From Candidatus Multivoradales bacterium (lineage in GTDB: Bacteria; Acidobacteriota; Thermoanaerobaculia; Multivoradales; JAHEKO01): a stretch of 64,000 bases of DNA. The stretch is from contig CBDCXM010000009.1 of assembly GCA_965223855.1 (NCBI GenBank), forward strand, positions 1,088,001-1,152,000, in the 5' to 3' direction. Every line of letters begins with the position of its first letter. Within the stretch, counting starts at the first letter, position 1. Below the pieces are notes generated by a model. That model worked only from the letters and a program-made list of their open reading frames with translations, searched no databases and was not told where the DNA came from. Positions 3,595-15,624 of this stretch are shown piece after piece. The translations under genes and the position numbers were made by a program.

Positions 3595-4257
3595 TCAGTC
3601 GGCGTCGAGCTCGAACTCGAGCAGCTCGACCGGGACGACCACGGTGCCGGTGGCGCGCAGCATCGCGTTGGCGTTCGACAGCACGGCGTAGTTGGCGCCG
3701 GCGCCGCCGCCGAAGCTCATCTGCATGCCGTGGAAGCCCTGCGCGTTGGTCGACGCGCTCCTCAGCCCCAGGACGCCGCGGCTCGGCTGGCCGCTGTTGA
3801 GGTACATCACCGCCATGAAGTCGTTGCCGACCGGCACGGGGGCGATGCTGATGCCGTCGAAGGTGCTGTTGGTCACCGTGCCGAGGGTAAAGCCGGCAAT
3901 GTAGGGCGCGCCTCCACCGCCGGTGGGCGGGCCCCACAGCGCCACGAGGCCGCCGCCGAGGGTGTTGTTCTGGAGGTAGAAGGAGACCGCGGAGACCGAG
4001 CCGGTGCTGAGCGGCGAACCGTTCCTGGTGTTGAAGCGGTTGCCGATCGACTGGCTGGGACCGCCGCCGCCGAGGGTGAAGTCGGCCGGGGTGCCGGGAT
4101 CGTAGGCGATCGTGCCGGTGCCTTGCGGCGTGGTCTTCTCCTCGCTGGGCTGCGGGTTGCGGTTCGGGTGGTGGCCCTGGGCGAGCGCGGCGTCGCACAG
4201 CACGAGCGCGAGTGCGACGACGAGCAGGGACAGGCAGACGTTCTTCGCGGCCTTCAT
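3595..4257 (-). CDS. Secreted hypothetical protein ending in a VPVELxxF motif
   Basis: Signal peptide MKAAKNVCLSLLVVALALVLCDAALA; RBS AGGAG; Gly/Ser/Thr-rich body; C-terminus VVVPVELLEFELDAD. Confidence 0.8.
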   Translation of the reverse strand: MKAAKNVCLSLLVVALALVLCDAALAQGHHPNRNPQPSEEKTTPQGTGTIAYDPGTPADFTLGGGGPSQSIGNRFNTRNGSPLSTGSVSAVSFYLQNNTLGGGLVALWGPPTGGGGAPYIAGFTLGTVTNSTFDGISIAPVPVGNDFMAVMYLNSGQPSRGVLGLRSASTNAQGFHGMQMSFGGGAGANYAVLSNANAMLRATGTVVVPVELLEFELDAD

Positions 4258-11957: not shown

Positions 11958-12682
11958 GACGTCAGAGTGCCCAGATCGATGCCCAGTTCCGAGAAGTTGC
12001 GCGCCGCCTGCTCGGCCCAGCCGCGGTTGGCGGCGGGGGAGGCGGGGCTCGGATGGAGAATGCGGCCGATGCGGACGTCGAGGTCGGCGAGTGCGCGGCG
12101 CGCCTGGGCCTCGGCGAAGGCGCCGACGCCGATCACCCACTCGGGATCGAGCGCTTGCACCGCCGCCGCCAGGGCGGGGTCGCACGCCGCTTCGACCGCT
12201 CGCTTCTCGTCCGCCGGCAGCTTGTCGGGGGTGCGGTTGCGGCCGCTCTCCTCCATGAAGGCGAGCGGGCAGTAGTTGAGGACGAAGAGGCGCTCGAACA
12301 TCCGCTCCGGCGTGCCGAAGGTGTCGCGGAAGAACCCCCACAGCCGCCGGCCGCTGACCTCGCTGCGGGCGCAGTCGAAGCCTTCGATCGGTCGCTTCGG
12401 GTGCTCGTCGGCAGGCCGTCCGACCGGCGCCTCGACGCCCAGCCAGTCACGCACGAGCTCAACCTCGCCGAACGGCACGCCGGTCTGCGCCATCCCCCAG
12501 GGCCCGGGGTTCATGCCGAGTAGGACGATCTCCTTGCTGCCGCCGCCCCAGCGCTCCAGGTAGGCGCGGTGCGGCTCCCAGGCGTAGCCGAGCGGGTTGT
12601 AGACGTGGGTCACCGGCGGCGAGAACGACAGCCGATCGACCGCCTCCGCCAGCTCGCGATCGATGGCGACGAGCTCGCTCAC
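11954..12682 (-). CDS. SMUG1-type (family 3) uracil-DNA glycosylase
   Basis: VYNPLGYA, GMNPGPWGMAQTGVPFG, SEVSGRRLW, NYCPL, HPSPASP. Confidence 0.93.
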   Translation of the reverse strand: MSELVAIDRELAEAVDRLSFSPPVTHVYNPLGYAWEPHRAYLERWGGGSKEIVLLGMNPGPWGMAQTGVPFGEVELVRDWLGVEAPVGRPADEHPKRPIEGFDCARSEVSGRRLWGFFRDTFGTPERMFERLFVLNYCPLAFMEESGRNRTPDKLPADEKRAVEAACDPALAAAVQALDPEWVIGVGAFAEAQARRALADLDVRIGRILHPSPASPAANRGWAEQAARNFSELGIDLGTLTS

Positions 12683-12722
12683 GCAGCGGATTCTAGCCAC
12701 GCGCGTTGCTACCCTTCCGGCA

Positions 12723-14193
12723 ATGTCCGCCGAACACCGCTTCGTGCTGCGCTTCTCCGGCGAGGTCTCCACCAAGGGGCGCCAGACCCGGCTGCGTTTC
12801 GCCGGCCGGATCGTCGAGGCGGCCGAGGACGCGCTGGCGAGCCACGGCATCGAAGGGCGTGTGAAGCGGATCTGGAGCCGCCTCTTCGTCACCGCGGACG
12901 ATCCGGCGGCGGGCGAGGTGCTGAGCCGGATCTTCGGTGTGCAGTCGGTATCGCCGGCGCGGCGGGTTCGCTGGCGCGCGATGAAGGACATCGTCGCCGC
13001 CGGCGAGGAGGCGTTCGGCGATGTCGTCGCCGGCAGGACGTTCGCCGTGCGGGTGCGCCGCACCGCCGGCCATCCGAAGCTCGACTTCGACTCCCCCCAG
13101 CTGGAGCGCGCCCTCGGGGCGCGGCTCGCCCCCCGCGCCGCCGGGGTCGATCTCGGCAACCCTGAGGTGACGGCCGGAGTCGAGGTGCACGAGGAGTACG
13201 CCTATCTCTTCAGCGAGCGCCTCGCCGGCCCCGGAGGGCTGCCGATCGGCGTCGAGGGCAAGGCGCTGGCGCTCGTCTCAGGCGGATTCGACTCGGCGGT
13301 GGCGTGCTGGGAGATGTGGAAGCGCGGCGTCGCCCAGGACTTCGTCTTCTTCAACCTCGGCGGGGCGGCGCACGAGGCGGGAGCGGCGGCGGTGGTCGAG
13401 CAGCTCGCTCGCCACTGGGCCTACGGCGACCGGCCGCAGCTCCACCTCGTCGACCTGCAGCCGTTCCTCGAGCCGCTCCAGGAGCAAGTGAAGCAGCGCT
13501 ACTGGCAGCTCGCCCTGAAGGCGCTGATGCTGCTGGCGGCCGACGCCCTCGCCGACGAACTCAAGGTGCCGGCCCTCGTCACCGGCGAGGCGCTCGGCCA
13601 GGTGTCGTCCCAGACGCTCACCAACCTCACCCTCCTCGACCGGGCGGTCCCCCGCGCGATCCTGCGACCGCTCCTCACCGCCAACAAAGAAGACATCGTC
13701 GCCGCCGCCCGCCGCATCGGCACCTACGAACAGTCCGCGGTCGTCCCCGAGTTCTGCTCGCTCGCCGCCCGCCACGCCGAAACCAAGGGCCACGCCGGCG
13801 AGCTCGCCGGCGCCATCGGCACCCTCGATCGCGAGGCGATTGCGCACGCCGTCGCCGACCGAGAGATCCGCGACGCCCGCTCGTCCGCCGCCAGCGGAGA
13901 AGTGGCCGGAGCGATCGACCCCGAGGCCCTGGAGCCCGGCTGGACCGTCATCGACCTCCGCACCCCCGAGGAGTACCGAGACTGGCACTGGCCCGACGCC
14001 CTCCACCTCCCCTACCCCCCAGGCCCTCCAGGCCTACGGCTCGCTCGATCGCGAGCAGCGCTACGTCTTCTACTGCGAAGTCGGCCTCAAGAGCGCCCAC
14101 CTCGCCTCTCTGCTGCAGGAGAAGGGAGTGGAGGCTCGGCACGTGCCTCGAGGAGCTGGGGCGTTGCGGCGCCTCGATGGTCCGAGAGGATGA
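12723..14193 (+). CDS. thiI: tRNA 4-thiouridine synthase ThiI with C-terminal rhodanese domain, +1 frameshift at 14015-14020
   Basis: THUMP region, PP-loop SGGFDS, TGEALGQVSSQT, PEFC. Removing one C from the C6 run continues into ...YVFYCEVGLKSAHLA (rhodanese Cys), stop at 14193. Confidence 0.92.
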
Positions 14194-14390
14194 CTGCTCG
14201 GTGTTTGCCGGTCCTCTTCGTCGATCGTGCACGCTGAGCCCAAAGGGGACGTCGCGCGTACTCGGTGGGACGATCTTCAGCGCGCGCTCTCTCGCCGTCG
14301 GCCGACGGCCTGCGCTCTGGTCCCAAGGCTTACGGGCCTCGGCGAGAGCCCCTTTGGCTCTCAGCATGCACGCTCGACGGGGGACCTACG
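14192..14390 (-). repeat. Copy A of a 199-nt structured non-coding element
   Basis: CGTAGGTCC start, long outer stem (14219-14248 with 14349-14379), core shared with copy B, end GGACCGGCA..AGTC. Confidence 0.8.
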
Positions 14391-14413
14391 GTTTGAGTCA
14401 AGCAGGAATCTGT

Positions 14414-14440
14414 CAAGGAAGCGGCTTGTCCGCTTCCTTG
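14414..14440. repeat. Perfect 11-bp hairpin between the two element copies
   Basis: CAAGGAAGCGG-CTTGT-CCGCTTCCTTG. Confidence 0.7.
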
Positions 14441-14536
14441 TCGATTGTCTTTCCTCCCCCTTCTTCAGCGGTTTCGGGTCGCTGGTTCGTGCTTCGGGAT
14501 ACGACCGTGGTAGTTCGAGGGCGATCTCGCCGCGAT

Positions 14537-14735
14537 CGTAGGTCCGCGTCACGTGGGGTGGTCTGTGCGCGAGGGGGCTCGAGCCGAGGCCCGAAAGCAA
14601 CGGCGATAGATCGCAGGAAGTTGGCCGAAGGCGAAAGAGCGCGCGCTGAAGGTCGTCCTACCGAGTACGCGCGACGTACCCCTCGCGCGCAGACCACCCC
14701 ACGACATCAACCGGACCGGCACAAGCCACGGAGTC
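14537..14735 (+). repeat. Copy B of the 199-nt structured non-coding element
   Basis: CGTAGGTCC start, 25-bp outer stem (14552-14576 with 14679-14703), shared core, end GGACCGGCA..AGTC. Confidence 0.8.
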
Positions 14736-14784
14736 TGCCCACCCGCCGTTACAATCTCCGCCTGGCGCTCACAATCGACAAAAC

Positions 14785-15624
14785 ATGACCGAACAAGCTC
14801 TCCAGCAACCCACCGGCCGCACCGGCCTACCAGGCATGCTCCACGCCCTATGGCTCTACCGCCGCTTCGTAGCCTCCATGGTGCGGCGCGAATTCGTGAG
14901 CCGCTACCTCGGTTCGCTGCTGGGCGGCATCTGGGCGCTGATCACCCCCCTGGTGACGATCCTCATCTACCTGGTGATCTTCTCCGCGGTCATGCGCGGC
15001 AAACTGCCGGGAGGTTCCGAGGACTCGCTCGGCTACGGCATCTTCCTGTGCACCGGGATCCTGGTGTGGACCTACTTCGCCGAGGTGGTGTCGCGCTGCC
15101 AGGGGACGTTCGTCGAGAACGCGAACCTGCTCAAGAAGATGAGCTTCCCGCGCATCACCCTGCCGATCATCGCTCTGCTCAACGCGACGGTGAACTTCGT
15201 GCTCGTGGCGGTGCTGTTCGTCATTCTGCTGGTGGTCGTCGGCCGCTTTCCGGGGCCGGCGATGCTCGGCTTTCTACCGCTCCTGGCGCTTCACCTCGCG
15301 TTGGCTCTCGGCCTCGGCATTCTCCTCGGCACGCTCCATGTCTTCTTTCGCGACGTCGGCCAGATCTGGGCGGTGCTGGTGAATCTGTGGTTCTGGGTGA
15401 CACCGATCGTCTACCACCCGGACATCCTGCCTGAAGGGACCCGCTGGATCCTCGACTGGAATCCGCTGACGCCGCTCTTCCGCGCCTATCAGCGGATCGT
15501 GCTCGAAAGTGCGTGGCCCGAGTGGAGCACGCTGGCGGCTCCGGCCGTTCTGGCGGCGGTGTTGCTCGTGCTCGGGCTGTTCGCCTTCCGGCGTCTGTCG
15601 GGCGAGATGGTGGACGAGCTGTGA
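14785..15624 (+). CDS. wzm: ABC-2 polysaccharide exporter permease (Wzm/RfbA type)
   Basis: RYLGSLLGGIWALITP, FFRDVGQI, WFWVTPIVY, NPL, FRRLSGEMVDEL. Confidence 0.92.
   Translation: MTEQALQQPTGRTGLPGMLHALWLYRRFVASMVRREFVSRYLGSLLGGIWALITPLVTILIYLVIFSAVMRGKLPGGSEDSLGYGIFLCTGILVWTYFAEVVSRCQGTFVENANLLKKMSFPRITLPIIALLNATVNFVLVAVLFVILLVVVGRFPGPAMLGFLPLLALHLALALGLGILLGTLHVFFRDVGQIWAVLVNLWFWVTPIVYHPDILPEGTRWILDWNPLTPLFRAYQRIVLESAWPEWSTLAAPAVLAAVLLVLGLFAFRRLSGEMVDEL

Follow-up and report, generated by a model that had tools for sequence, protein, structure and literature searches.

The gap between thiI and a wzm-like gene in the window (the whole 64,000-nucleotide stretch analyzed here, from a Candidatus Multivoradales bacterium) contains two copies of a palindromic repeat that are arranged head to head on opposite strands (Table 1). 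The last 46 nt of thiI, stop codon included, overlap the 3' tail and arm of copy A, and a gene for a Wzt-type ATPase follows the wzm-like ABC-2 membrane gene. Pfam domains agree with the identities that the first-pass annotation of this DNA, made from the letters and open reading frames, had given to these flanking genes.

Table 1. Positions of the paired repeat copies and their flanking genes in the window
Feature	Position	Strand	Basis or remark
thiI reading frame	12663..14237	+	ThiI, PF02568
Copy A, full unit	14192..14390	-	Reading and alignment of both copies, fold, arm comparison
Copy A core	14231..14365	-	Covariance model R1 match, 135.8 bits
Spacer between the two 5' feet (head-to-head pair)	14391..14536	.	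146 nt
10-bp hairpin in the A-B spacer	14415-14439		
Small hairpin in the A-B spacer, just upstream of copy B	14520-14531		
Copy B, full unit	14537..14735	+	Architecture as copy A, outer stem different
Copy B core	14562..14695	+	Covariance model R1 match, 122 bits
wzm-like ABC-2 membrane gene	14785..15624	+	PF01061; start 50 nt past the end of copy B

Copy A consists, in order, of the foot CGTAGGTCC, a private outer stem, a three-way-junction tip, the 3' arm, GGACCGGC and a 23-nt tail ending in AGTC. Most of the earlier description of the pair is borne out, including the coordinates and the 199 nt of each copy from CGTAGGTCC to AGTC, the 55-nt block with four mismatches between the aligned copies, and the single wobble per stem (27 matches plus one G-T in copy A and 24 matches plus one G-T in copy B, by strand-neutral arm comparison). 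The outer arms of the two copies are unalignable, yet each pairs with its own partner (comparison I2: 25 nt, 96% complementarity); the stems of the pair are unrelated, and complementarity between the copies occurs only in the cores and tails (I1 81%, I3 74%). The suggestion that length is under selection did not hold, as 199 nt is no property of the family: other copies measure approximately 171-179 nt from foot to foot, with stems of 15-40 pairs. Predicted RNA folds reach -107.0 kcal/mol for copy A and -109.4 kcal/mol for copy B against shuffle means of about -78, corresponding to z-scores of -6.57 and -7.01, and none of 200 shuffles folds as well. A scan of positions 14100-14850 returned no sigma-70-like promoter and no T-tailed terminator. 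At window position 14194, the left end of copy A, the X3 and X4 run contigs, which carry both copies, diverge leftwards from the thiI end; this could mean that the strains differ there or that the unit has another junction precisely at its end. Among contigs of four DNA runs, which break inside repeats, no joints and no usable empty-site form were found.

RNAalifold folds 25 cores into a three-way junction. In the consensus, the top of the outer stem is formed by GGGGG/CCCCC, the P2-P3 arm carries purine-rich internal loops (GA / GA(A/C)) and a variable end loop, the loop of the G+C arm P4 (CCGAGUA) is conserved in part, and a joiner of 4 nt completes the junction. A loop-E reading of GAA/AGUA in P4 was dropped because the 5' half of the loop is unconserved. 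The conserved tip spans approximately 110 nt, and the foot of the unit features a conserved A-G mismatch (UAGG...CCGG in the own genome), while the long stem is private to each own-genome copy, apart from two near-duplicate copies on contig C8. The covariation proposed as a check by the first-pass annotation is present: in alignment A3 (43 rows, fitted to the model, with row L068 coming from the unpublished genome G005), 92.6% of cells are paired compared with 35-53% when the partners are slid, both sides have changed in 23 of the 31 modelled pairs, and none of 500 shuffles attains the observed values. P4 covaries by lineage, with CGCGCG/CGCGCG in the own genome, GGCGGC/GCCGCC in G019 and ACCCC/GGGGU in part of genus g27.

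The two copies belong to a dispersed family. The own genome (G000; 4.52 Mb, nine contigs, 68% G+C) yielded 18 matches when searched by BLAST with copy B, and an nhmmer profile of the cores recovered 21 copies on two contigs; this search for further homologues, extended to relatives, rules out the local duplication that had been named as the outcome if none were found. Covariance models R1 and R2 detect 20-21 copies in the own genome and 19-20 in its sister species G002. R1 pulled in divergent members of other genera, which keep the junction and have long stems of their own, and R2 is the improved model. With R2, 16 of 45 genomes of the taxonomic family are positive, with 1-52 copies each: 21 in the own genome, 19 in G002, 52 in G058, 18 in G019, 15 in G057, 14 in G056, 13 in G047, 12 in G055, and 1-5 in eight others. 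Two genomes of the same genus (93% and 77% completeness) have 0 copies by this model. A sample of the class contains 14 positive genomes among 151, including 12 of the 21 genomes of g27, a genus of a second taxonomic family, with 1-7 copies each. Copies in relatives number in the hundreds. The nearest named record is a metagenome-assembled genome (MAG) labelled Thermoanaerobaculia, Acidobacteriota. An exact-pattern scan of genome contigs gave five loci, four of them in one MAG labelled Thermoanaerobaculia; the fifth, in a Streptomyces record, was treated as a chance match, and nhmmer gave no confirmation of it.

All own-genome copies are located between GC3-supported reading frames. Their neighbors are unrelated housekeeping Pfam families (cox, corA, mutS2, rpoD, thiI, relA, thrS/rplT, fumarase, acrB and others), and no consistently adjacent gene emerged from the neighboring proteins scanned (75+41+29). 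Copies often abut stop codons, 13 of 20 own-genome copies face a gene 3' end, and four own-genome loci are head-to-head pairs with a minus-strand copy on the left and a plus-strand copy on the right. Several copies are antisense to both neighbors and only about 60 nt from the next start codon (e.g., C9:2124569). Inspection by eye of the sequence upstream of 18 own-genome copies revealed no shared motif. The stem arms were also considered as guides or as inverted flanking DNA: blastn-short searches with 42 arms against the own genome returned only chance matches of 16-21 nt and the arms' own partners, the exceptions being near-duplicate copies and one copy interrupted by another repeat.

No Rfam family matches the element, which supports the earlier suggestion of an undescribed family. 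A search of window positions 13500-15500 against Rfam 15 at E-values up to 1 gave two chance matches, both outside the units, and copies from three other genomes searched at E-values up to 0.1 gave only tmRNA, beside the element. No description of the repeat was found in the literature, which was represented mostly by abstracts. The family is real and uncatalogued, comprising Y-tipped palindromic repeats of a group of Acidobacteriota.

The strand on which the structure is maintained can be read from the mismatches within the stems. For this, the 5' arm of every copy was aligned to its reverse-complemented 3' arm with a symmetric scoring scheme that penalizes G-T and A-C equally. Among 17 parsed own-genome copies (four rows left out, three for lack of the motif and one with only 5 bp), G-T outnumbers A-C by 24 to 5 (two-sided binomial about 5e-4); the counts are 45 to 14 over all 37 parsed rows and 17 to 6 over 16 parsed rows from two other genera, the strand-neutral aligner having left out 5 of 42 and 9 of 25 rows, respectively (no motif, or only 3 or 5 bp), and related copies are not independent in any of these counts. 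The bias is present in plus-strand and minus-strand copies alike and therefore follows the element rather than the replication strand; in class II copies, which are antisense to both neighbors, it stands at 9 to 1.

Copies retained at orthologous loci provide a second view of this selection. In g27, shared loci are filled in two to four species; they lie downstream of a carboxyltransferase gene, of an aminotransferase gene and of two unknown genes, and upstream of tmRNA. In alignments of these orthologues, the stems and cores are conserved, the end loop of P3 is hypervariable, and similarity in the flanks breaks down immediately beyond the foot. Between L114 and L115, two substitutions (C/G and A/G) and a 2-nt indel each have a counterpart on the opposite arm that leaves the helix perfect; the carboxyltransferase set contains a mirrored 1-nt indel together with an A-U to G-C change. 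On the sequence evidence, such mirrored changes would reflect either selection on each resident copy or very efficient correction from arm to arm. Together with the covariation and the excess of G-T over A-C, they uphold the earlier proposal that structure is selected in a single-stranded form: selection keeps individual copies folded, acting on the single-stranded fold of one strand. A conserved tip on arms that drift with exact compensation implies that something reads the folded single strand. At three g27 loci from three species (L117, L122 and L129), the element lies approximately 20 nt before the TAGAAT box of tmRNA, the tmRNA being confirmed by Rfam.

These properties have also led to consideration of dedicated, independently transcribed ncRNA genes of approximately 200 nt acting in trans, for example as a protein sponge, a scaffold, or a precursor cut from the long stem, with dispersal as a side effect of gene duplication. 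Conservation of core sequence and fold across at least two taxonomic families, strong covariation, a wobble bias that follows the element even antisense to both neighbors, and retention at orthologous loci all accord with such genes, and head-to-head pairs could share a divergent promoter region. However, the spacer between copies A and B lacks a promoter-like site, upstream sequences share no motif, no terminator follows the 3' arm, and the stem arms match nothing else in the own genome. Moreover, the copied units in G058 begin only approximately 10 nt upstream of the foot, so that a promoter would not travel along, and the range from 0 to 52 copies among close relatives, including the two same-genus genomes with none, is unusual for a housekeeping RNA. 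Free-standing RNA genes of this type are accordingly considered unlikely.

The distribution of copies among close relatives is patchy and has features resembling those of mobile DNA. Copies that are near-identical, stems included, occur in G002, G019 and G058 and look like recent bursts; those of G002 also share a leader of approximately 50 nt and a tail of approximately 65 nt. Upstream of rpmI, G001 has an empty site, 74 nt long and with a plain hairpin; G002 has a single minus-strand copy there and the own genome a pair. In the core tree, copies at this site do not group across species, which points to recurrent insertion at this position or to homogenization within genomes. Directly following the insertion site, four genomes share a conserved rpmI promoter (TTGYCN - 17 nt - TATAAT; L031 4020-4060; L094, L095, L096). 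Downstream of a sigma-54-activator gene, 7 nt separate convergent stop codons in the own genome, compared with a unit of approximately 345 nt in G002, and the recQ-mltA gap is approximately 25 nt in the own genome and contains a copy in G002. An empty thiI-wzm site could not be shown because the two genes are not neighbors in G001 or G002. The AcrB/Pyr_redox neighborhood was not counted as a site shared by the own genome and G002, the copies being in different intergenic gaps. A DDE-type MITE would have target-site duplications and would share terminal inverted repeats with an autonomous insertion sequence (IS). No such duplication is visible around the units of G002 and G058, whose precise ends are uncertain, and the neighboring proteins scanned included no parent IS or other autonomous parent element.

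Several other small repeats accompany the element. In g27 these are 7-bp hairpins whose loop reads AGAA; the leaders of the G002 copies and of copy B contain a small hairpin; and in G058 (L133-L152) arrays of two to six octamers (GCCCCTAN) and a separate GGGTTGAG-hairpin module lie upstream of most copies. By analogy, these mosaics, those of G058 included, recall bacterial interspersed mosaic elements (BIMEs), as far as the available text of PMC2817692 describes them. A second, unrelated repeat family of approximately 150 nt, with no Rfam match, is represented in the own genome by about 25 copies of high similarity; they begin directly at a stop codon (TAGCCCGG...), include GGTAGGTCGTAGG, and are located, for example, at C8:102145, C8:163744, C8:645953 and C9:1859670 and also in L034 at about 3620-3800. 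One of them lies within the 3' arm of the element at C8:177946 and so interrupts it, and this second family also fills the prfB-nudix gap of the own genome, in which G002, the sister species, carries an A/B pair instead.

The GTAG tetranucleotide at the foot had suggested a link to REP sequences and their RAYT transposases, a lead that stands in part. GTAG is found at the 5' foot of 6 of the 16 own-genome copies with a located foot and of most G002 copies; the remaining own-genome feet read CTAGG, ATAGG or CAGG, and those of other genera CCAGCC or AGAGG. No Y1 gene flanked by copies was identified. Y1_Tnp (IS200-like) matches number 16 in the own genome and 10 in G002, and none of the 16 is near an element copy. 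Fifteen of them are paralogues of approximately 300 aa with a weak Y1_Tnp domain, 60-95% identity and unconserved flanks; they occupy 15 loci (e.g., C9:525703-526617 and C9:1592435-1593337) and make up a gene family of many copies, unlike a classical IS. The other, a gene of 219 aa, is flanked by a different inverted repeat with about 27 copies. Its inverted ends are formed by this approximately 24-nt repeat (GATAGGTAWCCTGTCACCGRAAC; C9:452618-453400, L101 1370-2150), which also occurs singly and in tandem clusters (e.g., C9:1706079-1706341 and C8:466603-466725), with two copies some 50 nt beyond the elements at C8:510276 and C8:514291. The GATAGGTAWCCTGTCACCGRAAC repeat and the 219-aa gene look like a TIR-associated Y1 transposase (TIRYT-type) system. 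Across the 45 genomes, Y1 counts do not track element counts (13 Y1 matches and 0 copies in G048, 4 and 52 in G058, 1 and 12 in G055), and the g27 genomes G171 and G088 have 5-6 copies and no Y1 match. No reverse transcriptase (RVT), TnpB/IscB or other transposase domain was found in the 145 neighboring proteins (75+41+29).

These observations bear on a purely DNA-based explanation, namely a selfish giant palindrome of the REP/REPIN type whose folded strand is recognized by an HUH (Y1, RAYT-like) transposase, with no RNA role and no host benefit. G-T is the mildest mismatch in DNA, which would account for the wobble bias. GTAG or TAGG at the 5' foot in the own genus, inverted pairs and mosaics, the presence of Y1_Tnp matches in the own genome and G002, and the lack of a visible target duplication, as expected for the Y1 transposase class, are likewise in its favor. 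The far end of the G002 unit, ...CTAC, corresponds to GTAG on the other strand together with a small G+C hairpin, the canonical REP shape according to the part of PMC6006769 available. Nevertheless, no Y1 gene is flanked by copies, the flanks of the paralogues of approximately 300 aa are unconserved, the 219-aa gene has a different inverted repeat, Y1 numbers do not follow those of the element, two g27 genomes with copies have no Y1 match, and feet in other genera are without GTAG. Furthermore, mirrored changes in fixed orthologous copies argue for selection on resident copies, something not expected of selfish DNA by itself. An element of this kind is thus doubtful. Finally, a feature confined to this locus, either a decayed tandem or inverted duplication or a riboswitch-like cis leader of the wzm-wzt transporter operon, which might be suggested by copy B, co-oriented with wzm and ending 50 nt before it, is refuted by the dispersed family (21 own-genome copies beside unrelated genes and hundreds in relatives, thiI and wzm not adjacent in G001 or G002, no Rfam match) and retains almost no credibility.

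On balance, and with moderate confidence, the repeat is read as a palindromic element that is mobile but non-autonomous and REP/BIME-like, and whose fold is selected in single-stranded form, probably as RNA. The first-pass annotation had offered an undescribed ncRNA family or a non-autonomous mobile element; the element has no Rfam match and has traits of both, and both alternatives are alive. In some genomes the family resembles non-autonomous mobile DNA in its behavior; in others it resembles a conserved structured element. The units are protein-less palindromic repeats with a long hairpin, a three-way-junction tip and an A-G mismatch at the foot, and under the mobile-palindrome reading they would multiply and be lost like mobile DNA, always between genes and often as head-to-head pairs or in mosaics. 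The selected form may be the transcript of the folding strand, with tip and foot together being a putative docking site for a protein that acts in trans and is conserved throughout the order, and new copies may arise via a folded single-stranded DNA intermediate through an enzyme supplied in trans.

RNA is preferred as the selected form because compensation occurs in place in genomes without Y1 genes and because the bias follows the element's own orientation. Several considerations weigh on the other side. The spacer of the window pair yielded neither a sigma-70-like promoter nor a T-tailed terminator, and the sequences upstream of the 18 own-genome copies inspected share no motif. A transcript of the folding strand is not guaranteed for the copies that are antisense to both neighbors and lie so close to the next start codon, and perfect helices of 25-40 bp would be substrates of RNase III, which counts against an RNA form. 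The lack of a visible target-site duplication and of an autonomous parent, and Y1 counts that do not track copy number, likewise weigh against the mobile-palindrome reading as a whole. Tolerance of G-T fits folded single-stranded DNA as well as RNA, and folded single-stranded DNA read by an HUH-type enzyme is a serious rival to RNA. More speculatively, and with rather low probability, the family could constitute a new class of mobile RNA gene, in which the tip is a ligand or catalytic core for an order-wide protein and the private stem is a payload; if so, the stem might, for example, be cut into copy-specific double-stranded RNAs or act as a barrier that insulates convergent genes. Identification of the reader, whether protein, nuclease or transcription machinery, would explain this type of repeat and could yield a new RNA- or single-stranded-DNA-binding module. 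The covariance model is ready for use in annotating these genomes.

Among known systems, the closest are REP, BIME and REPIN sequences, which the available portions of the relevant sources (PMC2817692; PMC3337134; PMC6006769) describe as extragenic palindromes that fold on one strand and carry a short conserved motif at the 5' foot, with alternating or inverted copies, linkers and mosaics, no target duplication and no encoded protein. Measured against those partial descriptions, the element is similar in being extragenic, in folding on one strand, in the GTAG present at part of the feet in the own genus, in its inverted pairs and mosaics, and in having no encoded protein and no visible target duplication. 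However, its units are 170-200+ nt compared with the 21-65 nt given there for REPs, and its combination of a conserved tip with a private stem is the reverse of the REP arrangement. The halves of a REPIN doublet pair into one long hairpin, whereas the members of an element pair cannot pair along their stems. Copy numbers are 1-52 per genome rather than the hundreds of REPs, no RAYT gene flanked by copies and no correlation with Y1 genes was found, and, unlike in REPs, the core is conserved across taxonomic families.

HEARO and omega RNAs of the IS200/IS605 type resemble the element in being multi-copy, strongly structured, non-coding units of approximately 150-300 nt that spread with mobile DNA; unlike HEARO, it has no Rfam HEARO match, no TnpB/IscB domain among the neighboring proteins scanned and no single-stranded guide segment. 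A retron msr-msd is not indicated, as no RVT domain occurs in the 145 neighboring proteins scanned, nor is a riboswitch or cis leader, since copies hold no constant position upstream of one functional gene class and their neighbors are unrelated. Parvovirus inverted terminal repeats (ITRs) are T- or Y-shaped terminal hairpins, with a long stem and two short arms, that are read as single-stranded DNA by an HUH nicking enzyme. The resemblance is an analogy of shape only, because the element is chromosomal and dispersed and is not the end of a replicon. ERIC, Correia, RPE and similar MITE-like repeats are imperfect palindromes of approximately 100-150 nt between genes, some of which are kept at orthologous sites and may function in transcripts as RNA hairpins whose effects depend on orientation. 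Their whole sequence is conserved, arms included, they have no branched conserved tip, and they belong to unrelated taxa, so that, from this general description, the likeness to the element is one of lifestyle only. Extragenic palindromes of bacteria are as a rule short, restricted to a species and conserved along their arms, whereas the present family is large, branched and conserved in its tip across at least two taxonomic families.
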